A stretch of DNA of 64,000 nucleotides, from positions 160,001 through 224,000 of the forward strand of contig JBBTCT010000024.1 in assembly GCA_038060895.1 (NCBI GenBank), in the 5' to 3' direction. Shown here piece after piece: positions 5,859 through 51,644 of the stretch. The first letter of the stretch is position 1. Each line of letters begins with the position of its first letter. The stretch is from Planctomycetota bacterium (lineage in GTDB: Bacteria > Planctomycetota > MHYJ01 > WSZJ01). The notes under the pieces were generated by a model. That model was not told the DNA's origin and searched no databases. It saw only the letters and a list, made by a program, of their open reading frames with translations. The translations under genes and the position numbers were made by a program.

Positions 5859-5879
5859 TGGTAAAGACAGGGAGAAGCG

Positions 5880-7831: not shown

Positions 7832-7832
7832 C

Positions 7833-9650: not shown

Positions 9651-9660
9651 GGGAAGGCTC

Positions 9661-28727: not shown

Positions 28728-28976
28728 TCACAGGTAACCAGGCACGCCTCGACACCGCGGCCCGTGCCCGCTCATCCTCCCCACGCACCGCGCCAACGCG
28801 GCGGACTCGGCCTGGAACAGCAACTGCCCGGTCAACATCACGCGGTGATTGAACTCCTGCATCTCCCGGACGACGGCGGCGGCTTCTTTGGCCGTCGTGA
28901 CCGTGTCGAGCTTCTTCGAGAGTTCGGGCACCCGGCCGGCGAGGACCTGGTGCAGTTCGCGGATCAAATTGATCAT
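28728..28976 (-). CDS. Small hypothetical protein, possibly 3'-truncated
   Basis: ATG overlaps the upstream gene stop (ATGA); helical-looking first 60 aa, then a C-terminus that looks non-coding. Confidence 0.45.
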   Translation of the reverse strand: MINLIRELHQVLAGRVPELSKKLDTVTTAKEAAAVVREMQEFNHRVMLTGQLLFQAESAALARCVGRMSGHGPRCRGVPGYL

Positions 28977-29416
28977 TTCGGTTCTCCCTTGTCTGCGACG
29001 CGGGGGCTCTGGAGGAGCTTCGCCACGAGCGCGACCTCGTCGTGCAGGAACGCGAGCGTGGCCTCGGCGTCCACGGCCCTTCTCTGGGAAGCAGCCGTGT
29101 GCGCGTCGGCGAGGTCGAGGAGGGTCTTGCGGACTGCGGCGAGCGCCTCGAGCGCGCGATTCCATTCGGCGATTGACGCCGGCGAGAGCGCGGGCGACAC
29201 GTCGGATTCCTTGAGCATCACGAGCGTCTCGACCCGGTCGAGCTGCGCTCTTCGCGAAGCCCGGTTCACTTCGAGGAAAGCCGCGTTGCTTTCCTTCTGC
29301 ACCGCGTAAAGCCCTTTCCGGAAACTCGACAGCGATACCGGGGCGGGGGTGGCGCAGCCGGCTGCGGCGAGGAGAACCCCGGCGAGCCACAGTCGGAACG
29401 GTCCTCCCCTGATCAC
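28973..29416 (-). CDS. Hypothetical lipoprotein
   Basis: Signal peptide with lipobox AAGC, followed by amphipathic helices. Confidence 0.65.
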   Translation of the reverse strand: MIRGGPFRLWLAGVLLAAAGCATPAPVSLSSFRKGLYAVQKESNAAFLEVNRASRRAQLDRVETLVMLKESDVSPALSPASIAEWNRALEALAAVRKTLLDLADAHTAASQRRAVDAEATLAFLHDEVALVAKLLQSPRVADKGEPK

Positions 29417-29462: not shown

Positions 29463-30608
29463 TCAACTCCATCTCCCCGAGATCCTCGAAACGCGGGCCA
29501 GCGCTTCGCGCCGGCCCGGAAACCTTGCGGGAAAAGCTTCCTGCACGCGCTCCGCGATCTCGGCGAGCGAGTTCATGCCGTCGATCAGGGAGAGCACCAG
29601 CCGGTCGATACGGACGTCGTCGTCGATGACCGGGATGTAGGCCGCGGATTCGCGCCGGAGCGACTCCAGCGTCACAGGATTTCCGTGAAACGTGGACTGG
29701 CGGAAATCCGCCTTGGGCGGCTGCCCGGGAGCGGCCACACGCGTGTCCCACCGGAACAGGTACTCGTCGCCGATGAGGCGGGCGTCGAGCGCGATGCGGA
29801 AGACATCGCCGGCGGCGACGGGAACGGGGCCGGAGAGGGGAAGGAACATGCGGCCCCAGACGAGCTCGGGCTTGTCGGGCGCGTTGGAAAAAGAAATCCC
29901 CTCGGCGAGCTCCGCGTCGAACCAGAGGAGCAGGCCGTGGGCCATGCCCGCACGCTCGGCCTGGGCGTCGAAGGCGGCGGCCACGTCGGGACTTTCGACG
30001 GTGGCGTAGTCGAGCGTGCCCCAACTGACCGGGGGGGCGAGAAGCCGAAGCGGGCCCGCGAGGTTTGTGCCCGCCAGGACACGGTTCGTCACGATCCGCT
30101 GCCCCGCGCGCAGATCGAGGACGTGCGGGCGCGCTTCCCAGGGCCCGATGCTGGCCGCGTGGTGCCCCGGGGCTTCGACGGGCGCGGCCCACAGCGTGTC
30201 GCGCTTCCCGATCAGGACGCCGCCGGGGGCCAGGAAACGCCTGCGGGCGTCAACAATGGCGGGGATGTGATACGGAGTGAGGGGAAGGAGGCCGCGCAGG
30301 TCGGACACGATGACCTCGGCGCGACCGGGCAGCTCGACGCGCGCGGATTCCTGGTGGAAGAACTGGATCCGGTCGCCGAAGCCGTTCGCGACCGCGAGGT
30401 CGCGCCCCACCTGGATCGCTTCGTTCGGCTCGATCGCCCAGACGCGCGCGGCGCCGAGTCTGCAGGCGATCAGCGACATGATTCCGGCGCCCGCGCCGAT
30501 ATCGAGCACCGTGGTGTTCGGCGTCACGACGCGGAGCAGCGCCTCTTCGTACGCCTTCATCCGGACGGCGTCCGCGAACATCCGGCCGTAGTCAACGAGG
30601 TTGTAGAT
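29463..30608 (-). CDS. PRMT/PrmA-like SAM methyltransferase with a C-terminal winged-helix (PqqD-like) domain
   Basis: MFADAVRMKAY, VLDIGAGAGI, AIE, VIVSD, HG..LWFD motifs; first ATG is 30581 but the frame extends to an ATC at 30608. Confidence 0.8.
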   Translation of the reverse strand: MYNLVDYGRMFADAVRMKAYEEALLRVVTPNTTVLDIGAGAGIMSLIACRLGAARVWAIEPNEAIQVGRDLAVANGFGDRIQFFHQESARVELPGRAEVIVSDLRGLLPLTPYHIPAIVDARRRFLAPGGVLIGKRDTLWAAPVEAPGHHAASIGPWEARPHVLDLRAGQRIVTNRVLAGTNLAGPLRLLAPPVSWGTLDYATVESPDVAAAFDAQAERAGMAHGLLLWFDAELAEGISFSNAPDKPELVWGRMFLPLSGPVPVAAGDVFRIALDARLIGDEYLFRWDTRVAAPGQPPKADFRQSTFHGNPVTLESLRRESAAYIPVIDDDVRIDRLVLSLIDGMNSLAEIAERVQEAFPARFPGRREALARVSRISGRWS

Positions 30609-30619
30609 ACGGGAGGATC

Positions 30620-31699
30620 TTACCGGAGACCGCGGACCCTGCGCAGTGCGATTCCCGGCAGCCCTGCCATCGTCCGAGCCACTCCTCGTGCTCCGTCCTG
30701 GCTCAGGATTTTGAGCGCAAAGCGCGCCGTGGTTCCCTCGGCCAGCTCCGGCTGCACGAGGAGCCCGGGCCGCAGGAGGCGCCGGAAGAGAGCGCGCTGC
30801 CAGCGCGGAAGCGCGAGCGCACGGGCAAGCGATTCCGGGATTGCGGCGCCGAAGATGGCCCCGGCGAGCGCGAGACCGGCCGAAAGCGCGGCGGCCGTGC
30901 GCGTCTCCGCGGCGCGCAGGGCGAGAACGGCCGGGTCGGCGCGCAGAAGAAGCTCTCGAAAGTCGAGGATGTTTCCGAGCGGACGGAAGCCGTGGCGCAC
31001 GAGGTTGACGGCGGCAAAGACGAGAGCGTCCTCGGCGGAGGGGAAGCGGATGCCGGGAAACGCAGCCACGGAACGCGCGCGCGTCCCCGCGTCGTCGGGG
31101 CGCATCTCCCGCACGAGGCTCAGCTCCCCCATCAGCGTCCAGTGCAGATCGACGTCGAGCACGACGCCATGCCCCAGTTCACGCAGGAACGATTTCTCCA
31201 TCGCCCCCGCCCCCGTCTGCGCCGGCCCCCTCGAGAAGCCGAGAGCGATCAGGGCCTCCTCTGCGGCCGCGAGATCAGCCGGACCGACCAGCAGGTCCAC
31301 GTCTCCGAAGGGGCGATCCGCAGGCTCGCCGTAGATGCCGTACGCGAGGTGAAATCCCTTCAGGGCCACCGCCTCGAATCCGCGGGCCGCGAACGCTTCT
31401 CCTGCCTCCCGCACCGCTCCGGCCTTGATCGAATTCGAGTGCCCGTAGGACAGCACCCTCGCTTCGAGCGCCGGCCTGAGTTCCGTGGCCCAGGAGGGCA
31501 CGGTGCCGGCGGCAGCGATGCGGCGGCGCAGTTCACCCGCGACTCGGTTCTGGACGGCCAATACCTCGACCCGCCCCCCCTCCGCCCGCGCGGGCCACGC
31601 AGACGCGGGAAGACCTCGCAAGACGGCCAGGAGAGCACGCGCGCCTGGGTCCGCAACGGACGCCAGGTCCGCGTCAACCCAGGCGGCGCATGTGCTCAT
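30620..31699 (-). CDS. Nucleotidyltransferase family protein (NTP_transf_5 type, lasso-cluster associated)
   Basis: ALKG, RPFGDVDLLV, VDLHW motifs. Confidence 0.85.
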   Translation of the reverse strand: MSTCAAWVDADLASVADPGARALLAVLRGLPASAWPARAEGGRVEVLAVQNRVAGELRRRIAAAGTVPSWATELRPALEARVLSYGHSNSIKAGAVREAGEAFAARGFEAVALKGFHLAYGIYGEPADRPFGDVDLLVGPADLAAAEEALIALGFSRGPAQTGAGAMEKSFLRELGHGVVLDVDLHWTLMGELSLVREMRPDDAGTRARSVAAFPGIRFPSAEDALVFAAVNLVRHGFRPLGNILDFRELLLRADPAVLALRAAETRTAAALSAGLALAGAIFGAAIPESLARALALPRWQRALFRRLLRPGLLVQPELAEGTTARFALKILSQDGARGVARTMAGLPGIALRRVRGLR

Positions 31700-31778
31700 C
31701 GCGGCTCCGAAAACGACCCGGCGCGCGGAGCTGGAGAAGCCGTCGCGCGCCGGGAGTTCCGGTCAGTATGGGCTTCGC

Positions 31779-34700
31779 CTACTTGTTGCGGCACTCGATG
31801 CGCCACTGGCCGAGCTTACTCGGAAGGTCGGTGCCGTCCGAACCTACGATGAAGACCTTTCCGAGGCCCCCGGACGTCGTGGTGACGGCCCAAGCCCTGT
31901 CCGGCATGCCAATAATGGGAGGGATCGCTGCGCGGTGTTCATAGACGGTAGCGGGGGCGGGATCTGTAAGCACCCAGACGTAAGCACCCGTCGTAGAGTC
32001 GTAGATTTTCCACATCTCAGGAACTCCCGGCACGCCGAACGAGGGATCGCTCTCAATCAAGCCTGGTTGCGCGCCCTCCGTGTTGAACAGCGAATCGAAG
32101 GCGAAACTGGACGACTTCCGCTTCTCGATTCTCCACAGCAGGTCGTCGAGGGGCGCCCTGTTGCTCCCGGCGATAAAGAGCCTGTTTGTATCGAGCACGA
32201 GTTGGCCGCATCCAAAGTCTGCAACCGAGGGCGTGCTCGGAGGCAAGTAAGAACCCAGGAGGTACATCGAAGCGGCACCGACCGGAGACTCGGCGGTCGC
32301 CACGTCGACCTTCAGCAGCGCCCAGTTGTCAAATCCCGGGAAAATAGACGGAGGAACCCAGTACGGGTAGTCGATAGCAGTCCTGTAGGTTGTCAGCGCG
32401 TACAGATGAGTCCCATCCGTGACGACCGAGTGGACCGAGTCGTCCGAAAAGGTAAAGGTGCCGGTGAAGACGTCGTACAGCGTGATGCCGTTGTCTTTGC
32501 GATACGTCCCTTGTCCGCTGAAGCCGAATCCTGGGTTAACTGACTCTATGTAGACATCGAGGCTGCCATCCGAACAGCGCCGCTTCTGCAACATCGAGTT
32601 TCGCGTTGAGCCGGTATCGCCGACCGAGTCCTTGAGCCAACCTCCAATGATCAGGAAGTCTTCTGATCCATCGGCGATCGTGACACACGTGGCGGCTGCA
32701 GGGCAATCTGTCGTAGGCAACGAATGGGGTTCGATGTCATTCCAAAAGCTGCTCTGGGTGACGACCCAGGATGATGCGCCCGTCGTCGCGTCCAGCTTCT
32801 CTACCCGTATGTTGGACATGCCTGCGATGTCATCATCCCCTACGGCGTAGAGGAAGCCATCGGTGTGGAGGGCGATGTCCCCTGCCTTCCCGTTTGCGGT
32901 CGTGGTCGTGTACACGCCGTCTACGTCGAAGGCAGTATCGAGCACGCCGGTGGTAAGAACGCGCTTTTCGACGCGCCAATCATAGGATCCCGCAGTTGTC
33001 TCCTGGCTGCCAAACAGAAACATGTGCGTGGCGTTCACCAGGATCTTTCGTGGAATCATCTCGATTGCGCCTGCCGGATTAATTTTGAGGAGCCCGGTCC
33101 CGTCCGGCCAGGATCCGACCAACGAGCCGTCTGACAGCATCCTCCGCTCAACCCGCCAAGTGTTGTTAACCCCTGTCCCCATGCCTCCTTCGTAGCCGAA
33201 GACGTACAGGAAGCTACCCTCGGTGGCGACAGAGCGAGCTTCGTCCTTCGTGCTGCTACCCGGTTCGCTCTGGATCACGCCGCCGGTGCCGAAGCCGGTC
33301 ACCAGCAGGCCGCCGGTGCTGTCCGAGAAGATCGTGTTGTTCGACAAGGTGATCGATCCGCTGGTGGCGATGACGCGCCCCTGCACGACCGAGTCGGAGC
33401 CGAGCACGATGGCCGTGGGCGACGCAGCCGTGGCCAGAATCGTTCCCCTGAAATTAGTGCTGGCCCCAAGGCTGAATGTGTCGGAGATCCAGATGACGTT
33501 GTCGGCGTTGGCGCCGCGTTCGTACTTGAACTGAAAAACTCCCAGGGCGCTGACGATGTCCAGCGCTCCGGAGTGCCTGAAGATCCAGACGCTGCCGGGG
33601 TCGTTTCGACCGTCCAAGGTGATGGGTCCGTCCACCTTCGGATCTCCCGTGAACGCAAATGAGTCGATCAGGTAGACGCCGCCGGGCAACCGCTTGCCCA
33701 GCAAGGTGTACCCCTTCAGGCTGTAGTCCGCGTCGCGCGCGAGAGCATCTACCTGGGCCAGCAAAGCGGCGGCAACAGCGTCGTCGGGGGGGTCCGTCGC
33801 CGTGCCGCTGTCCGGGTAGAAGGTGCCGGGTGCCTCCACGACGAACGGTGGCGTACCGGGATCCATGATCCCGGTAGCGACGCCAGCGCTTCCCTTGATG
33901 AGCGTATCGCCGGTGTTCGTCATCGAGTCGTAGGCGAGCGCCGCGAAATTCGCGGGGGCGTCTGGATCAGAGGCGGAACCGAGCGCCAGCGTGCCGGTTT
34001 CACCGATGGAGATCGACCCGTAGACGTTCGTGGCGTAGTACCACCAGCCGTAGTAGAGCGACGCGACGCGCCCGGTCACATTGCTGCCGGCTCCGATCTG
34101 GACGTCGCCGTTCACGAGCACGGTGCCGATAAAATTGGCGTAGCCCGTCACGTCAGGATCTTTCCAGGGAGGAGACTTCTCGTCATCTCCGATGAATGCG
34201 CCCGGCATGTTGTCGTAGGTGTAGCCGTAGGGGCCAAGATCCGGTCCTGTGGACCGGTAGTCTCCTGACGGGATCGCGACTCCCACCTGCCACCATACGT
34301 TTTCGGGAAGCGCTCCCCCGGTCATCACAACCTTGGATTTGCCCCTGGCGTAAAGGTTACCGGGAATCTGGAAAATCCAGGTGTCCGTGGAGCTGCCGCT
34401 CAAGGTCAGAGTTCCGCCACCCAGGGTGACATCTTTGTGGATGTGCCCTGTCACGGGTTCGACGATCGTGGAGTCGAATTTATATATACCTGCGGTCAGG
34501 GTTTCCCCGGAAAGGTCCAGGTCGGTACGGGTCACCGTCGGCGTCCGACCGGCGAGGTCGGTGTAACAAAGGGTGGCGGCCAGCATGGCAGCGGCGTAAC
34601 CGGTGGGGTCGCCCGAGGGAAACGCCGTTGAACCGGAATAGGAGTAGTGTTCATCGCCGAAAATCGTGGCTTCCTTGAAGGTCGGCCACACATAGCCGCC

Positions 34701-35057
34701 GAAACCATCAGAGGTGTAGCCATCAGTCATCACCGACGAGTAGTCCTCGTTGTCGTAGTCGCCCCAGTTCGCGCCCACGTCGCCCCAGACCACCGTGTCC
34801 TTCTTGTGGTAGAGGTAGTAGTAGGCCAGCGCCGCGTAGAAGTAGGCGACGCCGAGGTCCGGTTTCGGGGGAGCGGGAGGTGGAGGGATGAGGACCGGGT
34901 CTACCGCGGACTTGCTGCCTGACCCGGAAGAGCCGCTCCCGGAAGAAGTGTTTCCGGATGAGGATGATCCGCCGTCGGAGCTCCTCTTGCACCCAGCGAA
35001 AACCAGCGAGACCAGCGCGAGGACGAGGACCGGCAGCACGTACTTTTTGGAAGTCAC
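31779..35057 (-). CDS. Large lipoprotein with two DUF3494 (ice-binding-like) domains and a C-terminal repeat/beta-propeller region
   Basis: Lipobox FAGC, Ser/Gly linker, WIFQI..ENVWWQVG and WIFR..DNVIW DUF3494 signatures, repeated WRVE(K/R)R..G motifs. Confidence 0.78.
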   Translation of the reverse strand: MTSKKYVLPVLVLALVSLVFAGCKRSSDGGSSSSGNTSSGSGSSGSGSKSAVDPVLIPPPPAPPKPDLGVAYFYAALAYYYLYHKKDTVVWGDVGANWGDYDNEDYSSVMTDGYTSDGFGGYVWPTFKEATIFGDEHYSYSGSTAFPSGDPTGYAAAMLAATLCYTDLAGRTPTVTRTDLDLSGETLTAGIYKFDSTIVEPVTGHIHKDVTLGGGTLTLSGSSTDTWIFQIPGNLYARGKSKVVMTGGALPENVWWQVGVAIPSGDYRSTGPDLGPYGYTYDNMPGAFIGDDEKSPPWKDPDVTGYANFIGTVLVNGDVQIGAGSNVTGRVASLYYGWWYYATNVYGSISIGETGTLALGSASDPDAPANFAALAYDSMTNTGDTLIKGSAGVATGIMDPGTPPFVVEAPGTFYPDSGTATDPPDDAVAAALLAQVDALARDADYSLKGYTLLGKRLPGGVYLIDSFAFTGDPKVDGPITLDGRNDPGSVWIFRHSGALDIVSALGVFQFKYERGANADNVIWISDTFSLGASTNFRGTILATAASPTAIVLGSDSVVQGRVIATSGSITLSNNTIFSDSTGGLLVTGFGTGGVIQSEPGSSTKDEARSVATEGSFLYVFGYEGGMGTGVNNTWRVERRMLSDGSLVGSWPDGTGLLKINPAGAIEMIPRKILVNATHMFLFGSQETTAGSYDWRVEKRVLTTGVLDTAFDVDGVYTTTTANGKAGDIALHTDGFLYAVGDDDIAGMSNIRVEKLDATTGASSWVVTQSSFWNDIEPHSLPTTDCPAAATCVTIADGSEDFLIIGGWLKDSVGDTGSTRNSMLQKRRCSDGSLDVYIESVNPGFGFSGQGTYRKDNGITLYDVFTGTFTFSDDSVHSVVTDGTHLYALTTYRTAIDYPYWVPPSIFPGFDNWALLKVDVATAESPVGAASMYLLGSYLPPSTPSVADFGCGQLVLDTNRLFIAGSNRAPLDDLLWRIEKRKSSSFAFDSLFNTEGAQPGLIESDPSFGVPGVPEMWKIYDSTTGAYVWVLTDPAPATVYEHRAAIPPIIGMPDRAWAVTTTSGGLGKVFIVGSDGTDLPSKLGQWRIECRNK

Positions 35058-35122
35058 GTGACCCTCCGGGATTTTGAAACAAGCTGAAGAATCTGAAAAC
35101 CCCCGAAACTCTTGATCGGGAG

Positions 35123-35152
35123 AGTATAGACCAAACTCATCCGGCGGCTCAA
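35123..35152 (-). promoter_or_regulatory. Putative sigma70 promoter for the DUF3494 lipoprotein
   Basis: TTGAGC-N18-TATACT on the minus strand in an AT-rich patch; GGAGG RBS before GTG 35057. Confidence 0.4.
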
Positions 35153-35159
35153 AAGTTTA

Positions 35160-36074
35160 TTAAGAAAGTTCAGATATTTTTTTTTGCACTTCGGCCAGAT
35201 CCTCGACCCTCCGGGGATGGGATAACGCCAACGGCGGGAAGGCGGCGGAGAGGTCGCCAAGATAGCGGAATTCGGCGCAAGCGCGCCCGCGGTCCGTCGG
35301 GTCCAGCCGGAAGGCCTGCCTCACCAGCGCCAGCATCGCCTCGCCGCCGGAAGCGCGCTGGATCCACGGACGCCCGGGACGGTGGGGGGCGAGGAAGAAG
35401 AGTCGCCAAAGAGGCGCCGGAGAGCTGCTCCAGCGGGAGCCGGTGGGAACCAGCCGTTGTTTTGTTTGCGAATCCGGTACCTGCCCTCCCCCGAACACCG
35501 GTGCGGATGAGGGCCACAACCGATGGATCGGGTAAGCCGGGACGATGCGCGAGTTTTCGTCGAGCAGAACCCCATCATCCGACAACAGCCGCGCCCCCGA
35601 CGCGCAAAAACTCGCCGCCAGCGTCGACTTTCCGCTTCCGCTCTCCCCGATGAACGCGATCGCGCCCCGATCGGTCTCCACGGCGCTCGCGTGCAGCACG
35701 GTCCGACCGGATGCGGAGAGAGCGCGCGGCAGGACATCGTCGAGAAACAGGTGGCGAACGGACTCGACGGACGACCCGGGCGCCGGGAGTGCCTCGACAT
35801 GGAGTTCTCCGCGCGCGACGAGAAAGTCGGCGAGGCCGTGGAAGCGAAGAAGCATGCGGTCAGCGGCGGGTCCGATCGAGAGACAACTCGTGCCGTCATT
35901 GCCCTGCACTTCGAACACCCAGCCTTTGTGCGGCGTTGGTGGCGCGGACGGGCTAAGCCGAAATGTCGCAACGGTTCGACGGGTCGCCGGAGAACCTTCC
36001 TCATCCCAGCCTGGCAGATCGGGGAATTCGATGTCGGTGTCGAGGCGCAGCCCGAAGACGGTGTAGTGCCGCAT
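35160..36074 (-). CDS. HPr-kinase-like lasso peptide kinase
   Basis: LHASAV, GESGSGKST, LLSDD; start set at MRHYTVFG (36074). Confidence 0.85.
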   Translation of the reverse strand: MRHYTVFGLRLDTDIEFPDLPGWDEEGSPATRRTVATFRLSPSAPPTPHKGWVFEVQGNDGTSCLSIGPAADRMLLRFHGLADFLVARGELHVEALPAPGSSVESVRHLFLDDVLPRALSASGRTVLHASAVETDRGAIAFIGESGSGKSTLAASFCASGARLLSDDGVLLDENSRIVPAYPIHRLWPSSAPVFGGGQVPDSQTKQRLVPTGSRWSSSPAPLWRLFFLAPHRPGRPWIQRASGGEAMLALVRQAFRLDPTDRGRACAEFRYLGDLSAAFPPLALSHPRRVEDLAEVQKKISELS

Positions 36075-36087
36075 TCCGCCCGGCAGG

Positions 36088-36378
36088 TTACTCGCTCGTG
36101 ACGTCAATGAGGCCTCGCTGCGCAAGCGCTTCCACGAACTCCCGCATGTCCTTCCGGATCGTTTCAGGGGGCGCTTCGAATTCCTCAGCGAGGCGGTCGC
36201 ACGCTGCGGCGATCGAGGGAGAGGTGGAAAGGCACGCCCAGAAAGCGGTGCCAACGTCATCAAGGCCGTAGTACGACTCGTTCTTCAGATTCAGGATGAC
36301 GGACTCGCCGTCCACGGCCCGAATCAGCGTTTCGGGCGAAACCACGGCGCGCCTCGCAAAGGAAAATTCCGGGTGCAT
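36088..36378 (-). CDS. PqqD family RiPP recognition element (lasso B1)
   Basis: 96 aa with DGESVILNL..YYGLDDVGT..W and F...L..RGLI pattern. Confidence 0.92.
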   Translation of the reverse strand: MHPEFSFARRAVVSPETLIRAVDGESVILNLKNESYYGLDDVGTAFWACLSTSPSIAAACDRLAEEFEAPPETIRKDMREFVEALAQRGLIDVTSE

Positions 36379-36400
36379 CCGAGGTCTCCAGGAAGCTCGC

Positions 36401-36565
36401 TTAGACGATGCCCATCTGCTTCGACAGGTCGCCGCCAATAGAGCCGGTGCCCGCTGTCAGTTTGACCAGGCTGCCGTATTCGCGAAGGATAGGCGCCTGG
36501 TAGGGTTTTTTCGACGACGCCGCGACGGGCGGGGTTGCCGGTCTGGATGCCTCGGTCTCTTTCAC
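36401..36565 (-). CDS. Lasso peptide precursor (54 aa), core GTGSIGGDLSKQMGIV
   Basis: GTG start with GGAGG RBS; leader YQAPIL (YxxPxL), G..., Thr at -2; core Gly1 and Asp8. Confidence 0.9.
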   Translation of the reverse strand: MKETEASRPATPPVAASSKKPYQAPILREYGSLVKLTAGTGSIGGDLSKQMGIV

Positions 36566-36585
36566 GTGGACTCGCCTCCAAACGT

Positions 36586-38382
36586 TCACGGTTCCGTGAT
36601 ACCAGCCATCGCGCGACTGTACCAGATTTCGATGCCGCCGATCATCCAGAGTGGCCACATCAATCGGCTTTGGTCCATCCGGCCGGCGGCCTCTTCCCTG
36701 AGGAATTCGCGGTAAAGGGAGGCGGCGGGGCCCGTGTTGGTCCAGCCCCGGGCAGCGGTTGTCAGCGACTGAAAGCTCCGCTCGCCGCCCAGCGCCCGGA
36801 ATGCTTCCGCAAACAGGTGCGAGAAATCCGCTTTGGTCCTGCGGTCGCGGACGGCCGGCGGAAGCAAGTCGCGGAGTCCGCCGCGGAGGACGAACTTTGT
36901 GGCCGCTCCGCGGCGGAGCTGCTCCCGCGGAACGGTCAGCGCGAACTCAATCAACCGGCGGTCATAAAACGGCATTCGCAGCTCGAGCCCGTGCCAGGCC
37001 ATGTCGCGTTCGTCGATTTCCAGCATGTGCTGTCCCCAGCCCGTTCCGTCGATGGCGAAGCGCCGCGCAGCCTCGGCGCCCGGGACGAGGGGGCGATGGC
37101 GATCCTTTGCGTGGATGCGGTCGACAAGAGAGATGCGGCGGGCGAATTCCGCGGAGATCCAGGCGGGCGCCTTTCGTTTTCCCATCACTTTCGCAACGGT
37201 CTCGAACGCCGGATGAGGCAGGACAGCGCGAAGAGCCGCGCGCAGGACCCCGCCACGTCGCGGCCCTGGTCCCATCAGCCATTCGTCGGAGCCGATGCCG
37301 GTCAGCACCGCCCGGAATCCGCGCTTTCGCGCGAGCGGGCGGATCGGGAGGGCGACCGCCGAGTTCGGATATCCGGGAAAGTCGAGCGTCCTTGCCGCGG
37401 ACGCGGCGTAGATCCCCGGGTCCGCTGCGGCGGCCTCCTCAAAATTTGCCTGGAGCCCCCACATAGACACCACTTCATCAATGTAGGCCCGCTCGTCGCA
37501 CGGACGCCCCGGAAACGAGAGCGAGAACGTCTCGAACCCCTTCCCCTCTGCCGCGCCCTCCCTGAACAGGGCCTGCGCCATCCCGACGACCGAGCTGGAG
37601 TCCAGTCCGCCGCTGAGGTCCGCACAGACCGGCGTATTGCTGCGCAGGCGGCAAAGCACGGCGGCCCGAAAGAGTTCGCGGAATCGGTTTCCATACTCAA
37701 GATCCGAAGCGAGACCAGAGACGTCGGAGACACTCCGCGGGGCGTACTGCCGCGCACGGACTCCCGCCGCGTCCGCCACGAGCACGTGAGATGGCGGCAA
37801 CCGCAGCACGCCTTTCCAGACGGTCTCTTCTCGGTGGGTGACGGCGTTGGCGAGGAACTCGCCGATCACTCCTTCGTTTGGCTCGCGGGGGAGGCCGGCG
37901 TCGCCGAAAAGGGCGCCGGGCTCCGAGGCGAAGACAAGGCGGCCGGCGTGGACCGCGTACGCGAGCGGACGCGCTCCGATCCAGTCTCGGGCGCAGAGGA
38001 GCCGGCGCCTCGCTGCGTCCCAGTACGCGAAGGCAAAGTCGCCAAGCAGCCGTCCCGGGGCGTCTTCACCCCATTTCTCGCAGGCCAGCAACGCGAGCTC
38101 GGCGTCGCCGTCGCCGGCCGGCGCAAGCGCTTTGCGCAGTTCGTCGCGATTGTCCAGGCGTCCGTGAAAGACGATGCCGAGCTTTCCCTTCACGAACGGC
38201 TGGTGTTCGTGCACGGCCTCGGGAGTCGTGTGCATCGCCCGGAAGCCGAGAGCGACGGAGCCGTCGATCCAGGTCGCGCAGCCGTCCGGGCCGCGGTGCG
38301 CGAGACGCGTGAGAATCGATCCGAGAGGCTCCGGCCCCGCCGGCCTGCCGTCGAAATAAAAAACTCCGGCTAGCCCGCTCAC
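36586..38382 (-). CDS. Lasso peptide cyclase (asparagine synthase-related, C protein)
   Basis: AsnB fold with Ser replacing the catalytic Cys (MSGLAG), LSGGLDSS, GIGSDE, RMPFYD; adjacent to precursor and RRE. Confidence 0.88.
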   Translation of the reverse strand: MSGLAGVFYFDGRPAGPEPLGSILTRLAHRGPDGCATWIDGSVALGFRAMHTTPEAVHEHQPFVKGKLGIVFHGRLDNRDELRKALAPAGDGDAELALLACEKWGEDAPGRLLGDFAFAYWDAARRRLLCARDWIGARPLAYAVHAGRLVFASEPGALFGDAGLPREPNEGVIGEFLANAVTHREETVWKGVLRLPPSHVLVADAAGVRARQYAPRSVSDVSGLASDLEYGNRFRELFRAAVLCRLRSNTPVCADLSGGLDSSSVVGMAQALFREGAAEGKGFETFSLSFPGRPCDERAYIDEVVSMWGLQANFEEAAAADPGIYAASAARTLDFPGYPNSAVALPIRPLARKRGFRAVLTGIGSDEWLMGPGPRRGGVLRAALRAVLPHPAFETVAKVMGKRKAPAWISAEFARRISLVDRIHAKDRHRPLVPGAEAARRFAIDGTGWGQHMLEIDERDMAWHGLELRMPFYDRRLIEFALTVPREQLRRGAATKFVLRGGLRDLLPPAVRDRRTKADFSHLFAEAFRALGGERSFQSLTTAARGWTNTGPAASLYREFLREEAAGRMDQSRLMWPLWMIGGIEIWYSRAMAGITEP

Positions 38383-41300
38383 CTCCGTTCCTTCTCAATC
38401 TTCTCGATCTGGGTCATGTAGCGCAGCGCCCGGGCTTCCGCTGCATCGATCGCCAGGGCCTGCGCGAAGCACTCCTTCGCGGGGGTCAACTGTCGATTCA
38501 TGAAGTGAAACTCCCCCTTCATTCCCCAGGCCGTCGCGTTTCCCGCGTCAACCTGGACCAGCCGCTCGAAGCACTCCAACGCGAGCGCCCCCTGGCTATC
38601 CATGGCGGCGGTGACCGCGAGGTTGGCCAGCACCGCGGCTTCGTCGGGCCGCAGGGCCCTTGCGCGACCGAACATGTCGATCGCCGCCTTGATGTCTCCC
38701 TTTTGACGAAGCAGCGCCCCGAGGTTGAACCATCCGTTCCAGTGCTCGGGGTCCAGCTCGACCGAACGGCGCAGCCGCGTCAGCCCTTCATCGACGCGCC
38801 CCAGCGAGGCGAGCGCGAGCCCCGCGTGGTAGTTGGCCATCGCCGAATCCGGATCCGACAGGAGCGCCTTCTCAAACCACTTGAGAGCTTCGTCGTCCCT
38901 GCCCAGCTGGTGCGCGCGGAAGCCGCGCAGGTCGAATTCGTGCGCACCGGTTCCCTCGTCGCCGAAAGTCTCGAGGAGCGCCGCCATTTCCGCTTCTGAA
39001 ACCGCGCGGCGGAAGACGCGGCGAAGGGCTCCTTGGGCGTCGAAGACGAAGGTGGAGGGGAGCGGGGCGTCGCCGCCCGGGCCGAAGAAGGACCTGAGGA
39101 GAGGTTCGTCGGCGAGGAACTGCGGGTAGGAGACGCCGGCGGCCTGCACGGCGGCCCGGACCGCGTCGAGGTCCTTTGACTCGACGCTCACGCCCGCAAA
39201 CGTGGCGCGGTCGCGGAACTTCCCCGCGAGCGCGACGAGCGCCGGCATTTCCTCCTTGCAAGGCGCGCATGTGGGCGACCAGAAGTTGATGACCGCAGGC
39301 GTGCCTTTGGTTGCAAGCGCCGCTTCCCCGCCCTCGAGCCGACGCGCGGTGGCGTCGAACGAGAACACCGGGCGCGAACGCGGCGGCCCGGACGTCCATC
39401 GGGGCAGCTCGCGCGCTTCGAATCCCGGGCGGCCGTGACGGATCGTGACGAGACGGTCTGCGGGAACGCGTTCGACGGTCTGGACATCTCCGCCGGGCCA
39501 GGTCACCGTCACCCGTTCGGCCAGGGCGGCGTCGCCGAGACCGAAATGCAGGTCGAACGGCACCTGCGTCTGGAAACCGTCGGTGAGGCGCGTGTAGTCC
39601 TGCTGCGTGACGCCGCCGGCCTCGACTTTCACGAGCGCGCCAAGCGCGTCGGCAAGCCCGCGCTGCCCTTCAAGTCGAAGACGCAGAAATCGTCGCGCCG
39701 GAGAACTGTTTTCGACGACGCGCAGTCCCTGGAGCGAGAAGCACAGGAGGTCGAGGTCGCCGTCGCCATCGACGTCGGCAGGCGCGGCGGCGCGGCCGTC
39801 GTCGTCGAAGTCGAGACCGCAGACGTAGGCGGCGTTGGGATAGGTCTGCGAAGGGCCGTCCGCGTTGAAGAAAAGGAAATCCCGCTCGTACCCGCTCCAG
39901 GAGCCGCGGAACGTGGGGTCAACCCTGGCTTCGTAGTTGGGCTGTACTTTCTTCGACTCAAGGGCGCGTGCGTCGGCGGCGACCTGCCGCCAGAAGTGCG
40001 TTCAGAAGTCCGGGGCGTTCGCGTCCGAATTCGTCGTGAACCCGTTGGCAACCCAGATCTCGCGATCGCCGTCGTTGTCGATATCCAGGAACAGGCAGGC
40101 CCACGCCCAGTCGGCCCAGTTCAGGCCGCGGGCCACGGACGTCTCGCGCCATTCCCCCGATTTCGGGTCGCGCTCGTAGAACTGGTTTCCCTGGGCGAGC
40201 AGGAGCCCCAGCCGGCGCATCTCTGGCCCGAGGTTATCCGCGAGAAGAAACACGCGATTACCCGCATGGCTGTACATGTTCGAGAGGTACATCCCCCACG
40301 TCCCGTCGTTCTCCCAGTCCGCGATCGTCACGCCCATCGTGTAGTTCGTGTCGGCGTTGAAAATGTGCGTCTTCGCGTCGGCAAAACGCCCCTTGCCGTC
40401 GTTCTGCCACAGGTGATTCGGTCCGAAGTCGTTTCCCTCGAACAGGTCGAGGTCGCCGTCGAAATCGAAGTCCCACCATTTCGCGACATAGGAGTACTGC
40501 GTTCCGGTGATGCCGCGCGCGTCCGACTCCTCCGTAAACCGCAGGCCGCCCTGGTTGATGAACAGGTAGTTGTCCGCTCCGTCGTAGGCCACGACGCGGT
40601 TGAAGGCGTCGTTCTTCGATCCGCGATTCTTATAGCAGCAGAAGAACAGGTCGATGTCGCCGTCCCGGTCGAAGTCCGCCGGCACGATCCCCTGCACCGA
40701 CACGCCCACGGTCCCCGGCGGCACTGCAAACTCCGTCGCGCGCGTCTCCCAGCCATCTCCCTTCCGCACGTGGATCCGCAAGTTCGCCTTGTCCCGCTTC
40801 TCCCCGCTGACGTCGCCGCTCACGAGCTCGTCCACCCCGTCGCCGTCCAGGTCGAGCGCCACGTACGACCACGCCACATCGTCCGGCTTGAGGGCCGGCC
40901 CCTGCCCGCGCACGAATCCGCCCTTTCCGTCGTTCAGGAACAGCGCGAGCTCGCCGCCGCGCACCCAGGCGAGCACGTCCGGAAACTCGTCCCGGTTCCA
41001 GTCCGACACCACCATTCCTCCCGTGCTCGTGATCCCGCGGTCGTCGATCATCGACCGGCGAAGCTCCCGGTTGGCAGCGGACTCATTGAAGTGCAGACCG
41101 GTTTCATCCGTGATGTCGATCCACGGCGCGCGCCGCGCATCCAGGCGCGTCCCCTCGACCCATTCCAGCCGCTCGACCTGCCAGGTTTTTTCCGCCGTGG
41201 CCACCCACCGGCTGCGCACCGTTCCGGAGAGATCCGCCCGCATCCCGTCGGTCTTGCGCCCGGCGAGCTGGAAGTGCAGCACGACGTAGGCCGATCGAAG

Positions 41301-41759
41301 GCCGGGATCGAGCAGGAACTCAAAGGGACGCCACGTCGTTCGCTCGACCGCGACCCAGTCTTTCAAGTGCTCGCGAATCGTCGCGACGAATGCCGCGGCA
41401 TCTCGCTCGGGAAGTCCTTCAGCTCCGTACTCCCGGATTCCCATCCAGGCGTCGGGAACCTCCTTGCCATCCTGGGGCGCCGGAAATTTGCCGCGAAACC
41501 CCGGAGTGAGAGCGGCCTTTGCCTTCTCCCAGTCCATCTCGCGAAGGCCCTTCATGAAACTCCGCTTGATCGAACCGTTGGCCGTCTCGTAGGTCGACTC
41601 GGAAAGTTCGACGTCCTTGACAAAGTCCGCCGGGCGCACGAACGGCCGTTCTCCTTCGAGAATCGGCACGCGTTTCTTGAGGACCACCGCGGTAATCAGC
41701 GCTGCAATCCCCACTACTGCCGCGATGACCCCAGCGCCGCGGGCGCTTCGTCGTGTCAT
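38379..41759 (-). CDS. FG-GAP/CRTAC1 - ASPIC/UnbV - thioredoxin(CxxC) - TPR protein with one in-frame TGA (candidate selenoprotein, 1126 aa)
   Basis: ORFs 40002-41759 and 38379-39632 share a frame; manual translation of 40001-39633 has no stop and continues family motifs (SWSGYERD, DVDGDGDLD); WSPTCAPC motif; TPR repeats. Confidence 0.75.
39975..39991 (-). promoter_or_regulatory. Putative bacterial SECIS hairpin
   Basis: GGCGGC-AGGUC-GCCGCC stem-loop starting 10 nt after the in-frame UGA. Confidence 0.6.
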
Positions 41760-41768
41760 TCGCGCATG

Positions 41769-42071
41769 CTAGCCCTGACGGAAAGTCGCTTCAAGCGGAG
41801 TCGGCGCCGGCGCGAGCGTCTTGCGCAGTTCCTCGCGGTTGTCGAGGCGGCCGTGGAAGACGATCGCGAGGTCTCCCTTCACGAACGGCTGGCGCTCGGC
41901 GGCGGCCTCGGGGGTGGTGTGCATCGCCTGGAAGCCGAGGGCGACGGGGCCCGCGGACCAGCGGGCGCTTCCGTCCGGCCCGCGGTGGGCGACGCGGGCG
42001 AGGACGGCGTCGAGCGGCTGGGGGGCGGCGGGCTGGCCGTCGAAGTGGAAGACGCCGGCGATGCCGCTCAT
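41769..42071 (-). pseudogene. Truncated duplicate of the lasso cyclase N-terminus
   Basis: First ~89 aa align colinearly with 36586-38382 (HRGPDG, AMHTTPEA, VFHGRLDNR), then diverge after LAPA and stop. Confidence 0.85.
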
Positions 42072-42176
42072 GGGCGGATTCTACAACCGCGAGGAGATTG
42101 CGGCGCGAGTGGGGAGAGACGGGATGACGGTGGACTCGGTCGAAGACCGATATCAAGAATTTGCATCGCAGCGCGC

Positions 42177-42205
42177 TTGACAGTACGGTTGCCGTGAGAT
42201 ATGTT
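42177..42205 (+). promoter_or_regulatory. Putative sigma70 promoter of the dCTP deaminase
   Basis: TTGACA-N17-TATGTT. Confidence 0.55.
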
Positions 42206-42222
42206 AGTATTCTGTTAGCACA

Positions 42223-43752
42223 ATGGAACGGATCCCCACAACGAAAAGACCAAGCTCCGATACGGGAGATCCGCTTGCCTACCCGGATCCCGAACTCGTG
42301 GTGGCCTTGGTCTACCCTACGGGTACGGACGGCGACGGTTTGCGTAGCAGGATCACAAGGACGCTTCGACGCTTCTCATTCGGAGTCGATCCGATCCGCA
42401 TCAGCGAGATCATCGAGAAACGATGCGGGCGGAAAATTCCAAAACGGCCGCTTCCGGATCGGATCGAGGCGCTGATCCACGAAGGAGATCAGCTCTGTCG
42501 GCCTCCGGATGCTGCACAGCGAGGAGCCGAGTCGAGGGAGAAGATTCTGGCGCTGGCAGCAATCTCAGAAATCGCCTACAACCGGTCCTTCTCCGACGGG
42601 TCCACACCGCAGGCCAGACCAAAGTGCGCCCACCTGGTTTCATCGCTGAAGCGACCGGCTGAGTGCGAAGAATTTCGGCGAGTTTATGGGCCAGGACTCT
42701 TCGTGATCGGAGCGAACACTCCGGTACCGAATCGCGTGAAACGACTCATGCGCGGAGGGGCGAGTCTCAATCGCGCCCGGGCGCTGGTTGCTCGGGATAT
42801 GGAAGAATCCGCCGCCGGGGGCCAGAAGCTCCAGAAGACGATGCAGATGGCTGATGCGTTCATCCTGCTTGGCGACGGAGACTACGAGAATGCTGTCGAT
42901 CGGGTGTTCGACCTGATCTTTGGAGCACCCTTTGTCACCCCGGATCGTGATGAGCATGCGATGTTTCTCGCGTTTTCGGCCTCGTTGCGTTCGGCCTCGC
43001 TTTCCCGGCAAGTGGGGGCAGCGCTTCTTGACGACAATGGAGAGCTCATCGGAGTCGGATGCAACGATGTCCCTGCGTTTGGCGGCGGTCTCTACTGGCC
43101 TGGTCCGGGAGATAACCGGGACCATTGCTCTTCAGGCCTGGACACGAACAGGAAGGTCCTCGGTGAGATCATCGACGACGTCGCGGATCGCCTCGACGTG
43201 AGACGTGAGACTGTTCGCGCCAGGCTCAAGGGCGCTCCCATCGAAGACATCACCGAGTTCGGACGCGCCGCGCACGCCGAAATGGAAGCGATCCTTTCAG
43301 CGGCACGCTCGGGGGCCAGGCCCCGGGGTGGAACGCTGTACACCACGACGTTCCCTTGTCATAACTGCACCCGACACATCATTGCTTCAGGTGTGAGACG
43401 AGTCGTGTACGTGGAGCCATACCCTAAGAGTCGCGCTCGCGAGTTGCATGCGGATGCGGTCTGGTAGACGGAATTTCAGGGTCAGCCCACCGCAAAGAGC
43501 CGAAAAACGAGGGTAGTGTTTGAGCCATTCGTCGGGATCGGGCCTCGGCGATACTTCGATCTCTTCTCCGTGAGCCACGGTTCAGGAGAGCAGTTGCGCA
43601 GAAAAGCAGAAGACGGTGTTCGGAAGGTGGACTGGAGGAGAGAGGGAGCAAGAATCAGATGCCCGATGCTTCCGAATTCCTATCTTGGCCGTGAAGAGGT
43701 GGCTGCCAAGCGTTTCCTGGCGTTGCAGCATCAGTCGAGGATGCCCTCATGA
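42223..43752 (+). CDS. Anti-phage dCTP/dCMP deaminase (AvcD-like, P-loop-like plus deaminase domain) interrupted by an in-frame TAG at 43465-43467
   Basis: SLKRP.E, LSRQVGA, HAEMEA, TTFPCHNC, YVEPYPKS; after the TAG the same frame gives FEPFVGIGPRRYFDLF. Confidence 0.82.
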
Positions 43753-43934
43753 ACGGCAAGTCGAAGTCCTTGAACAAGGAGCAGGCGAAGTATCTTGCGT
43801 TCCTCAGGAGAGCGGCCGATCGGGTCGATGCGTGGCCGGATTGGATGCGCGGCGATCGACCACACCCTGCGAAAGGGAGTGGGGTCGCGAAGTCACTGCG
43901 AGGCGAAGGTTCACGCAGCCGAACGGTGACGTAG
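43749..43934 (+). CDS. Small hypothetical protein coupled to the deaminase
   Basis: ATGA overlap with the deaminase tail stop, GAGG RBS, RVDAWPDWMR motif. Confidence 0.55.
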   Translation: MNGKSKSLNKEQAKYLAFLRRAADRVDAWPDWMRGDRPHPAKGSGVAKSLRGEGSRSRTVT

Positions 43935-43978
43935 AGGCGCCGGGCACCGGAGGCAGGAATCCCACCGACGGCTCGAAC

Positions 43979-44182
43979 ATGAGCGCCGTGCAGGCGGCCG
44001 AGCTTATCGGCATCTCGCGCGCTGCTGTTCACAAGGCGGTTCATGCAGGGAAGATCCAGGCGCTCCGGATCGGCAACGTCACGGTGATCAACAGGAAGTC
44101 CGCCGTTGAATACCTGCGGAATCGTGAGTCGGTCATGCGAGCTCGAGCGTCGCGCGGGAAAGCACGTAAGGCCCTGGGATAG
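43979..44182 (+). CDS. Excisionase-like HTH protein; partial duplicate of 45332-45853
   Basis: SAVQAAELIGISRAAVHKAV; DNA similarity to the paralog begins upstream of the ATG. Confidence 0.6.
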   Translation: MSAVQAAELIGISRAAVHKAVHAGKIQALRIGNVTVINRKSAVEYLRNRESVMRARASRGKARKALG

Positions 44183-44206
44183 CGGTTCGACACGCCTGAT
44201 TGGCGA

Positions 44207-44635
44207 TCACCGTCCTCCTTCAAGCGGCGGGTAGACCGCGCGCAGCGCCGCACTCTCCCCGATCGCCTCCCCGCCGACCTCCACCCACGCGTGCGCCTCG
44301 ATCCCTTTGCCGGCGCGCTTTGCGCCGAAGCGGATGCGGCCGTCGATGCCGAGGCGGCGGAGGAGGGCGAAGAGGACGAGGGCGCGGGGGACGCAGGAGG
44401 CGCGGGGGAGGGAGCGGCGGGCGACGCCCATGGTGACGCGGGCGGTTTCGCGGGCGCGGGCGAGAACGTCCACGCCTTTCGGCCCTGCTTTTTTCAGCGG
44501 CGCGAGAGTGGCGAGCATGGACTTGACCTTGCCGAAGCCGAAGACGCGGAGGGCGGGGACGACGAGGGCCTGGAGGGCGGCGGCTTTGGCGGCGAGGGTG
44601 CGGTCTGCTGGGGAGAGATCGCGAAGGCGGGGCAT
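44207..44635 (-). CDS. Lasso peptide leader peptidase (B2, transglutaminase-like)
   Basis: SCVPRAL and AHAWVE catalytic Cys/His motifs, 142 aa. Confidence 0.92.
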   Translation of the reverse strand: MPRLRDLSPADRTLAAKAAALQALVVPALRVFGFGKVKSMLATLAPLKKAGPKGVDVLARARETARVTMGVARRSLPRASCVPRALVLFALLRRLGIDGRIRFGAKRAGKGIEAHAWVEVGGEAIGESAALRAVYPPLEGGR

Positions 44636-44794: not shown

Positions 44795-45160
44795 ATGCCC
44801 GATCGCATCGTCTTCAACGTCGCGATTCCTCGGACCGACGAATTCACAGGCCAGAGGCACAGCCCTCAGAAGTCGCGTTCCTGGTTCTGGCGAACGGCCG
44901 AGCTGGAGTTCTGCCGCGGAGGGTCTCAGATCGGCGTGGCCATCCTCGGCCTCTGGTTTGAACACGGCCTCCCTCCGGGGGCAGCGCCCGTTCAGGACTT
45001 TTGCGACTGGTACAAGTTCGCCGTGCCCCCGGACCGGGTCGAAGATCTGGGAAAGCATGTTGAACTCGCGACGCAGGAGTTTGGTCAGAAATGCATCTAC
45101 CTCGAGCGCGCTGGCGAGGCCGACTTCATCGCGAATCCGAACTATCGTTCGGCAGGGTAG
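44795..45160 (+). CDS. Hypothetical protein (121 aa)
   Basis: Own promoter and GGAGAAGG RBS; EFGQKCIY motif; protein-like composition. Confidence 0.7.
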   Translation: MPDRIVFNVAIPRTDEFTGQRHSPQKSRSWFWRTAELEFCRGGSQIGVAILGLWFEHGLPPGAAPVQDFCDWYKFAVPPDRVEDLGKHVELATQEFGQKCIYLERAGEADFIANPNYRSAG

Positions 45161-50415: not shown

Positions 50416-50583
50416 TAAGTAGCTCCACGTTGATTCTGTGCCATGCATCCGCGCGCCTTTCGCCGTCCCGCTTCGTTGTCGATCCTCACTGGAGCTCCGT
50501 TCCGCTCCAGTTCCGGTCTCCGCCTTGCGGGCCGGCGAAATTCGCGGCGGCTGCATGGCACAGAATCAACGTGGAGCTGCTTA
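50416..50583. mobile_element. MITE-like element, 168 bp with 37-bp terminal inverted repeats
   Basis: 50416-50452 versus the reverse complement of 50547-50583 match at 35/37; TA at both ends; no coding capacity. Confidence 0.7.
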
Positions 50584-51579: not shown

Positions 51580-51644
51580 CGTTCGTCTCCCTGGTTGTGC
51601 GAACCCCAAGGTTACACCAAAACCGCCCCGCAGCCGGCGACGGT

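Follow-up and report, generated by a model that had tools for sequence, protein, structure and literature searches.

A 64,000-nucleotide stretch of the genome of a Planctomycetota bacterium (contig JBBTCT010000024.1, positions 160,001 to 224,000 of the forward strand; G000:C24:160001-224000), hereafter called the window, carries a set of lasso peptide genes that, on balance, probably constitutes a working but rearranged biosynthetic pathway. The pathway is of the split-B, kinase/nucleotidyltransferase type, includes in addition a methyltransferase with the fold of the protein arginine methyltransferases (PRMT), and is lodged in a variable arm of the main Wza/Wzc polysaccharide locus. The source genome, G000, comprises 5.4 Mb in 47 contigs and is 86.5% complete. 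Sixty different open reading frames (ORFs) of the window were scanned against Pfam, and selected ORFs were also compared with NCBIfam, each family with its curated cut-off. All seven named lasso genes are encoded on the minus strand inside positions 29463-44635 (15.2 kb), and the Pfam and NCBIfam matches confirm the first-pass annotation of this DNA, which had placed the B2 peptidase, cyclase, precursor, recognition element, kinase, nucleotidyltransferase and methyltransferase on that strand (Table 1). From high to low coordinates, the minus-strand order after the ligase-like gene is B2, a cyclase fragment, an FG-GAP gene, the cyclase, the precursor, B1, the kinase, an ice-binding-like gene, the NTP_transf_5 nucleotidyltransferase, the methyltransferase and a 147-aa ORF. 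The cluster is not compact, and about two thirds of the span (~10 kb) consists of interleaved other genes, which the first-pass annotation had passed over.

The precursor is read from a GTG start codon that stands 9 nt behind a GGAGG, and its orthologue in a second genome of the same genus (G229) starts likewise. Its C-terminal stretch is KKPYQAPILREYGSLVKLTAGTGSIGGDLSKQMGIV. Counted from a predicted cut after 'KLTA', the leader carries the motif YxxPxLx3Gx5Tx with Tyr-17, Pro-14, Leu-12, Gly-8 and Thr-2, and the core of 16 residues contains Gly1, Thr2, Ser4, the predicted acceptor Asp8 and a C-terminal Val. The precursor passes NF033521, the NCBI lasso leader model, at 24 bits (cut-off 19). 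When all six frames of the 5.4 Mb genome were scanned for this motif followed by a tail of 10-35 aa, six matches came up, and only the one at the precursor gene has a PqqD gene and a cyclase next to it, which argues that the match is not a chance pattern. In the G229 precursor the leader is kept and the core is different.

The remaining parts of the lasso core are also present. B1 is a PqqD-type RiPP recognition element (RRE; RiPP, a peptide made by the ribosome and modified after translation). B2, a transglutaminase-like Cys protease, has Cys81 and His115, both invariant in seven aligned sequences. It stands alone, 5.8 kb from the intact cyclase and separated from it by plus-strand genes, and is therefore outside the cyclase's transcription unit. 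The minus-strand run is broken by plus-strand genes on both sides of B2, namely by an unannotated gene and an HTH_17 gene towards the ligase-like gene, and by a paralogous HTH_17 gene and a dCTP deaminase gene towards the cyclase fragment. The position of the cyclase next to the precursor and B1 favours a lasso role, and its Pfam domains score well above their cut-offs. The cyclase start and the stop of the FG-GAP gene before it overlap, an arrangement that suggests coupled translation of the two. All seven needed ORFs are full length, the key residues of B2, the kinase and the nucleotidyltransferase are kept, and the GC content at third codon positions (GC3) is high in the coding frames; by appearance, the lasso parts look functional. 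A search for related loci with the cyclase as query gave only one weak, irrelevant match. Three further genes of the genome are 31-33% identical to the lasso cyclase, namely two AsnB-like genes in the polysaccharide operon of the window (Table 1) and one at G000:C26:24752-25951. For the two within the glycan operon, a function as sugar or glycan amidotransferase is more probable than one as lasso cyclase.

The enzymes expected to decorate the peptide retain the residues that matter in their relatives. In the HprK-like kinase, H128, G143, G146, G148, K149, S150, D166 and D167 (H...GxxGxGKS...DD) are invariant in seven sequences. Their spacing matches that of BsfK, in which, according to the available part of its description, mutation of the same H-G-G-G-K-S-D-D pattern impaired the kinase (PMC10368454). 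The planctomycete core has Thr2 and Ser4 on either side of position 3, the site at which the Bsf-type peptide has its Ser3 and which here holds neither Ser nor Thr. In the nucleotidyltransferase, K114, G115, R129, D133, D135 and H186 are invariant in nine aligned sequences, and D133 and D135 form a DxD pair; in PsmN, mutation of the Asp pair abolishes function (PMC6993621).

The third tailoring candidate is the methyltransferase. An AlphaFold model computed with a 39-sequence alignment has a mean predicted local distance difference test score (pLDDT) of 94.7 and a predicted template modelling score (pTM) of 0.87. The top Foldseek matches to this model are PRMT6, PRMT2, CARM1 and HMT1 (E ~1e-25, ~315 columns), and the modelled chain has the Rossmann domain and the beta-barrel that would define a PRMT fold. 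About 70 C-terminal helical residues remain outside the PRMT match. D94, as judged by eye, is the only invariant acidic residue in the region that we take to correspond to the double-E loop of PRMT1. At least 1242 homologues were found at E<=1e-10 among 8000 scored candidates, and their source names are usually arginine N-methyltransferase 1 or L11 methyltransferase. In the first set of loci, methyltransferase homologues adjoin the kinase in seven of nine loci outside the genus. All seven belong to other families of the phylum and combine methyltransferase, kinase and B1, with a cyclase match in six, and the precursors of the non-genus clusters with B1, cyclase, methyltransferase and kinase have Asp at core position 7-10. 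Judging from this gene content, a predicted lasso subfamily with a kinase and a PRMT-like methyltransferase is widespread, and a limited literature search found neither a published characterisation of it nor a paper on such a methyltransferase in lasso clusters, on HprK-related kinases or on lasso clusters with a kinase in Planctomycetes. One of the seven methyltransferase-linked cores ends in Ser. Arg occurs in none of the seven, which excludes arginine methylation of the mature peptide, and the leaders do hold Arg. The PRMT-fold methyltransferase always accompanies the kinase, and since its substrates lack arginine, its chemistry is probably new for the fold.

Known lasso systems share parts of this enzyme set. 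The bsf cluster of Bradymonas sediminis FA350, in the available part of its description, has in common with the planctomycete cluster the split B1/B2, the cyclase, the HprK-like kinase and the nucleotidyltransferase, together with the kinase catalytic residue pattern and an FG-GAP protein as neighbour (PMC10368454). BsfK needs B1, and its site is Ser3, close to the N-terminal end of the core, rather than a Ser at the C-terminus (PMC10368454). The bsf cluster has an ABC exporter and an Ile at leader position -2, whereas the planctomycete cluster has Thr at this position and no exporter was found in its window. The PRMT-like methyltransferase and the glycan-locus context of the planctomycete cluster are not described for bsf in the available part of that source (PMC10368454). 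The pseudomycoidin cluster (psm) of Bacillus pseudomycoides likewise combines a kinase with an uncharacterised NTP transferase; there the phosphate is added first, and a PsmN-dependent hexose is then placed onto the peptide-bound phosphate (PMC6993621). PsmN needs its Asp pair and the planctomycete enzyme has the invariant DxD. The psm site is a C-terminal Ser, whereas the planctomycete core ends in Val, and psm further differs in its Firmicute host, its ABC exporter PsmD and the absence of a methyltransferase (PMC6993621). Clusters of the paeninodin type share the HPr-kinase homologue, which in that type acts on the linear precursor, and nucleotidyltransferase and sulfotransferase genes are reported in paeninodin-related clusters (PMC8498205). 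Their specificity for a C-terminal Ser and their exporter set them apart from the planctomycete cluster (PMC8498205). The paeninodin and pseudomycoidin background on which the first-pass annotation drew agrees with the available part of this review (PMC8498205). StspM, of the lassomycin type, is similar in methylating a lasso precursor; it is described, however, as an O-methyltransferase that gives a C-terminal methyl ester (PMC8498205), and the planctomycete enzyme has the fold of arginine N-methyltransferases.

A pathway can be proposed from these parts. Through the YxxPxL...T motif, B1 would bind the 54-aa precursor by its leader. The HprK-like kinase would phosphorylate a Ser or Thr of the linear core, with Thr2 or Ser4, both in the ring segment, as the likely site if BsfK and its Ser3 are taken as the model. 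The NTP_transf_5 enzyme would then add a sugar or a nucleotide onto the phosphate, as PsmN does, and the PRMT-fold enzyme would methylate something other than arginine, as the absence of Arg from the cores suggests. The separately encoded B2 would cut after Thr-Ala, and the cyclase would join Gly1 to Asp8, both of which are present in the core, to give a 16-residue product with a predicted lasso topology. The part of the first-pass annotation that foresaw a phosphorylated and glycosylated lasso peptide is thus supported by homology and by the residues of the kinase and the DxD pair.

The gene set is flanked by polysaccharide genes. The first-pass annotation had located it between a wzc-bearing operon and ligase and wza genes, and these flanks were recovered as a Wzc-like protein, a weak flippase match, a Wzy_C protein and Wza. 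In G000 as searched with tblastn, this window is the sole place with matches to Wza, to Wzc, to the flippase and to the ligase-like gene. Recurrence of the arrangement was examined with the kinase, as the first-pass annotation had proposed. Of 301 Planctomycetota genomes, G000 included, 26 have kinase matches, with 29 kinase places outside G000, and the 25 other kinase-positive genomes hold 56 Poly_export (Wza) matches, from which distances were measured on shared contigs. Expected counts assume uniform placement along the genome, the distance limits were self-chosen, and one accessory-gene family (AbiEii) was used as control. The kinase lies within 10 kb of Wza at 2 of the 29 places (0.27 expected, Poisson p 0.03), within 15 kb at 4 (0.40 expected, p 8e-4), within 20 kb at 4 (0.54 expected, p 0.002) and within 40 kb at 5 (1.07 expected, p 0.005). 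The control family lies within 15 kb of Wza at 1 of 86 places (Fisher one-sided p 0.014 against the kinase). The four matches within 15 kb belong to four different families, at kinase-Wza distances of 2.2 kb (G232:C100, L140), 6.8 kb (G119:C9), 11.8 kb (G214:C90) and 12.1 kb (G122:C65). G214:C90 holds a full cluster with methyltransferase and nucleotidyltransferase, and at G232:C100 a PqqD gene, a kinase and a nucleotidyltransferase form a trio that lacks a cyclase. In the phylum, placement in a glycan locus thus recurs modestly more often than chance.

Sixteen kinase loci from outside the genus were annotated with Pfam. A clear glycan context was seen in four of them (L038, L129, L140 and L035) and none in the other 12, and ABC exporters occur in five (L031, L035, L038, L129 and L130). 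The annotated stretch ends just short of the Wza gene in G122 and G214. The count of four in 16 was defined after the fact and serves as background, to be compared with the 2.8% of G000 positions that have at least two markers; the Wza-distance test supersedes it. At L140 (positions 6437-10477) the trio stands right behind Wza and ahead of epimerase, carbamoyltransferase and heparinase-like genes, and neither a cyclase nor B2 was found at this locus; it resembles a version of the module that lacks the lasso part and lies among glycan genes. Two further kinase loci contain long open frames. In L030 (G252:C147, 4310-6928) one open frame joins the kinase to the cyclase, and in L040 (G110:C41, 4154-5410) one joins B2 to the kinase; each is either a fusion or a merged ORF call. 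A limited literature search found no report of lasso genes co-located with polysaccharide export genes.

Two genomes of the same genus show how the locus has changed. In G229, an 11.7 kb contig has the order cyclase, FG-GAP, precursor, B1, kinase, ice-binding-like gene, nucleotidyltransferase, methyltransferase and 147-aa ORF, with identities of 54-82% to the genes of the window. The order from precursor and B1 to the methyltransferase, behind the FG-GAP gene, is shared with the window at 64-81% identity. Here the FG-GAP gene and the precursor have no cyclase between them. In the window, the upstream cyclase position is held by the fragment, which agrees with the intact cyclase at 74% of residues 1-89 and forms a 77% nucleotide repeat (D1) with its gene. 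The stop and spacer region of the fragment resembles the end of the G229 cyclase in a side-by-side reading by eye, a stretch that the scripted alignment missed. The fragment is most likely the remnant of a cyclase gene after internal deletion, and most likely the window has an intact second cyclase directly before the precursor and an upstream copy reduced to the remnant. The intact cyclase is 61% identical to that of G197, 56% to that of G229 (C-terminal part only) and 73-74% to the local remnant (89 residues); with the three about equally distant, these values single out no orthologue.

The other genome, G197, has a syntenic glycan locus with Wzc (76%), the ligase-like gene (69-70%; 82% in G229), the 400-aa ORF (60%) and Wza (75%). 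An orthologue of the flippase was not found in three genomes of the genus with the window flippase as query. At the place of the lasso genes, G197 has only three related genes: one for a cyclase (61%), one for a precursor whose leader has the motif of the window precursor, and one that is ice-binding-like. B1, B2, the kinase, the methyltransferase and the nucleotidyltransferase were not found there. B1 and a kinase (40%) are on another contig. The trio is flanked by a DCD-type deaminase gene, Uma2 genes and an AbiEii fragment. It occupies 6791-8742 and 3536-6487 of G197:C5 (L125), and its precursor core has 13 residues. Since pseudomycoidin can form without B1 and B2, according to the available part of its description (PMC6993621), the reduced set of G197 may by analogy still be active. 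This arm of the locus is a turnover zone in which lasso genes persist across the genus. Runs of two further studies, and two metatranscriptome libraries of one sample, contain short contigs that match the window identically. Their pieces span the boundaries between the 147-aa ORF and the methyltransferase and between the nucleotidyltransferase and the ice-binding-like gene, and also fall on the ice-binding-like gene itself, on the cyclase end and on the B2 start. No short contig crosses the junction of the remnant and the FG-GAP gene, the uncovered parts being uninformative. The metatranscriptome contigs give a weak hint of expression.

Several observations weigh against a working pathway in a recurrent glycan context. 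The kinase scores 42.4 bits against the TIGR04352 cut-off of 200 and so falls outside HPr-rel-A, which pairs a TIGR04352 kinase with a TIGR04353 PqqD protein. NF033535 is the best NCBIfam match of the cyclase, and its 379.5 bits lie below the curated cut-off of 525. The C-terminal Ser that is the site in the paeninodin type is absent, the core ending in Val. An RRE-like leader-binding domain was considered for the C-terminal 70 residues of the methyltransferase but not borne out: hhalign against the B1 profile gave a probability of 0.7% (E 0.079), and the predicted model of this segment has only helices and no RRE beta-sheet. One cyclase copy is a deletion remnant, and a defence gene on the opposite strand separates B2 from the operon. 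No ABC transporter (ABC_membrane, ABC_tran) or S9-type peptidase was found at Pfam threshold among the 60 ORFs, in agreement with the first-pass annotation, which had seen neither an ABC exporter nor an isopeptidase. Of the kinase genes, 25 of 29 are not near Wza, the 15 kb limit was self-chosen and 10 kb leaves only 2 of 29 (p 0.03), and many contigs are short enough to hide linkage. The contigs from RNA libraries may be DNA carry-over.

The first alternative is that ordinary secondary-metabolite genes have settled as island cargo in a recombination-prone arm, with no functional tie to the polysaccharide. We regard this as possible, if doubtful. The stretch from the ligase to the cyclase holds unrelated mobile or defence genes both in the window, with the dCTP deaminase and two HTH_17 genes, and in G197, with its DCD-like deaminase, Uma2 genes and AbiEii fragment. 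The cyclase remnant, the loss of five of the genes from the syntenic place in G197 and the 12 of 16 non-genus loci without a clear glycan context all suit an island of this kind. Against it stand the enrichment of the kinase near Wza in four families, which the AbiEii genes do not share, and the trio without a cyclase that lies amid glycan genes 2.2 kb from Wza in G232.

To our knowledge, lasso peptides of the kinase/nucleotidyltransferase type have no known biological role. The first-pass annotation had suggested that the phosphorylated or glycosylated peptide may act as carrier, anchor or regulator of the surface glycan rather than as an antibiotic. That the peptide is itself part of glycan production, in one of these roles or as a primer, and not an exported bioactive peptide, is an idea that we consider quite improbable. 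It accords with the lack of a detectable exporter in the window, with the concentration of the Wza, Wzc, flippase and ligase matches of G000 at this one place, and with the more frequent than expected proximity of kinase genes to Wza. The placement of a hexose on a peptide-bound phosphate by PsmN also fits, as does the fact that, in the available part of the same source, no antibacterial activity was shown for paeninodin and pseudomycoidin (PMC6993621). The idea draws, however, on co-localisation and speculation. A lasso of 16 residues carries no membrane anchor, a WecA-like priming transferase is already encoded in the locus, and relatives with the same enzyme set have ABC exporters at 5 of 16 loci and mostly lie outside glycan loci. 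The first-pass annotation had itself named clusters unlinked from polysaccharide loci and a peptide exported unmodified by a transporter encoded elsewhere as what would speak against its idea, and, with most relatives outside glycan loci and exporters in 5 of 16, this is largely the pattern found. The neighbourhood comparison that it had proposed gave an excess of linkage (4 of 29 against 0.40 expected) alongside 25 kinase genes not near Wza and the five loci with exporters. From co-localisation alone, a carrier role is inseparable from a shared sugar supply or shared regulation. The co-localisation signal is genuine though slight, and milder explanations fit equally well, namely that the nucleotidyltransferase uses local sugar nucleotides, that regulation is shared with envelope genes, or that export proceeds through the envelope machinery. 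A broader form of the idea, in which the RRE-kinase-nucleotidyltransferase module, with or without a cyclase, is a working part of Planctomycetota Wza/Wzc loci and its phospho-sugar-decorated peptide primes, caps, anchors or regulates the glycan, seems to us rather improbable. We read the placement in a glycan locus instead as a sign of shared envelope context (sugar-nucleotide supply, co-regulation, export), not proof of a role in glycan synthesis.

That the cluster is decaying and no longer yields a product, as the truncated cyclase, the displaced B2, the lack of a detectable exporter in the window and the gene losses in G197 might suggest, is very improbable in view of the seven full-length ORFs with their key residues, the high GC3, the overlap suggestive of coupled translation and, weakly, the gene pieces in RNA libraries.

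Among the other genes of the span, the ice-binding-like lipoprotein has recurring W-R-[VI]-E-[KR]-R-like repeats in its C-terminal half. Its gene lies within the operon, and orthologues occupy the corresponding place in G229 (54% identity) and G197 (31%); in two genomes it stands between the kinase gene and that of the nucleotidyltransferase, and in the third it follows the precursor. The 147-aa ORF adjoins the methyltransferase in G229 as well (68% identity). The FG-GAP gene, which is not a lasso gene but is part of the operon, has an in-frame TGA at 40002-40004 that is conserved in position in G229. Behind the TGA, at a distance of 12 nt, stands a GC-rich hairpin whose loop reads AGGUC, and both SelB and two tRNA-SeC genes are encoded in G000. 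Of 68 matches to the region in 16 related genomes, 65 have exactly one TGA, and G000 alone has seven copies. The gene product is a candidate selenoprotein. The surroundings of B2 seem to collect nucleotide-depleting defence genes; the dCTP deaminase-like gene that G197 has at this place, together with Uma2 genes, is a different one, of the DCD fold.

Table 1. Features of the window, in order of position (minus-strand genes run from high to low coordinates).
Feature	Position	Strand	Basis and remarks
Wzc-like protein	55-2214	+	Pfam
Polysaccharide operon	55-28688	+	Pfam-based; Wzc-like, WecA-like GT4 glycosyltransferase, GT1/GT2 glycosyltransferases, FkbM methyltransferases, two AsnB-like amidotransferases, heparinase II/III-like, UDP-GlcNAc 2-epimerase
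AsnB-like gene	7833-9650	+
AsnB-like gene	15700-17610	+
Glycosyltransferases and weak flippase match	26123-27436	+	Pfam
Unannotated 147-aa ORF	28973-29416	-	Last of the minus run; adjoins methyltransferase; no Pfam/NCBIfam match
PRMT-fold S-adenosylmethionine methyltransferase, 372 aa	29463-30581	-	PrmA, PRMT_C and Methyltransf_25 matches; tailoring candidate
NTP_transf_5 nucleotidyltransferase, 359 aa	30620-31699	-	PF14907 8.4e-34; PsmN/BsfN-like by position
Ice-binding-like lipoprotein, 1092 aa	31779-35057	-	DUF3494 x2; PF11999 7.7e-46; lipobox-like N-terminus
HprK-like peptide kinase, 304 aa	35160-36074	-	ATG at 36074; TIGR04352 4.5e-11; catalytic pattern
B1, PqqD-type RRE	36088-36378	-	PF05402 3.2e-18 (above cut-off); lasso_PqqD_Bac 1.1e-13
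Precursor A, 54 aa	36401-36565	-	38-aa leader and 16-aa core; GTG start, leader motif, NF033521
Lasso cyclase C, 598 aa	36586-38382	-	Intact; Asn_synthase 2.3e-45 and GATase; NF033535 3.3e-113
FG-GAP/ASPIC/thioredoxin/TPR gene, 1126 codons	38379-41759	-	Two same-frame ORFs joined by in-frame TGA
Second-cyclase remnant	41769-42071	-	100-codon fragment; first 89 codons and original stop region; NF033535 1e-22
Anti-phage dCTP deaminase	42223-43467	+	NF041025 1.4e-107, 360 bits against cut-off 400
HTH_17 DNA-binding gene	43616-44182	+	PF12728; true start probably further in
B2 leader peptidase, 142 aa	44207-44635	-	PF13471 8.1e-19; NF033537 64.3 bits against 33; alone between plus-strand genes
Unannotated 121-aa gene	44795-45160	+	No annotation; paired with second HTH_17 gene on other side of B2
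Paralogous HTH_17 gene	45332-45853	+	Repeat D3, 81%
Wzy_C O-antigen ligase/polymerase-like membrane protein	45860-48271	-	PF04932 2.1e-22; TPR tail
Unannotated 400-aa ORF	49152-50354		Flank of glycan locus
Wza-type polysaccharide export protein	50581-51819	-	Poly_export 6.1e-21, SLBB

The locus illustrates how such a cluster is reshaped, with a cyclase remnant and another copy elsewhere, an inserted defence gene, and a close relative from which most of the genes have been lost. The recurrent proximity to Wza, seen in four further families and not in the control gene family, is a concrete lead to the role of such peptides. If the decorated peptide did prove to be a working part of Wza/Wzc loci, a RiPP would have a non-antibiotic, structural or regulatory role.

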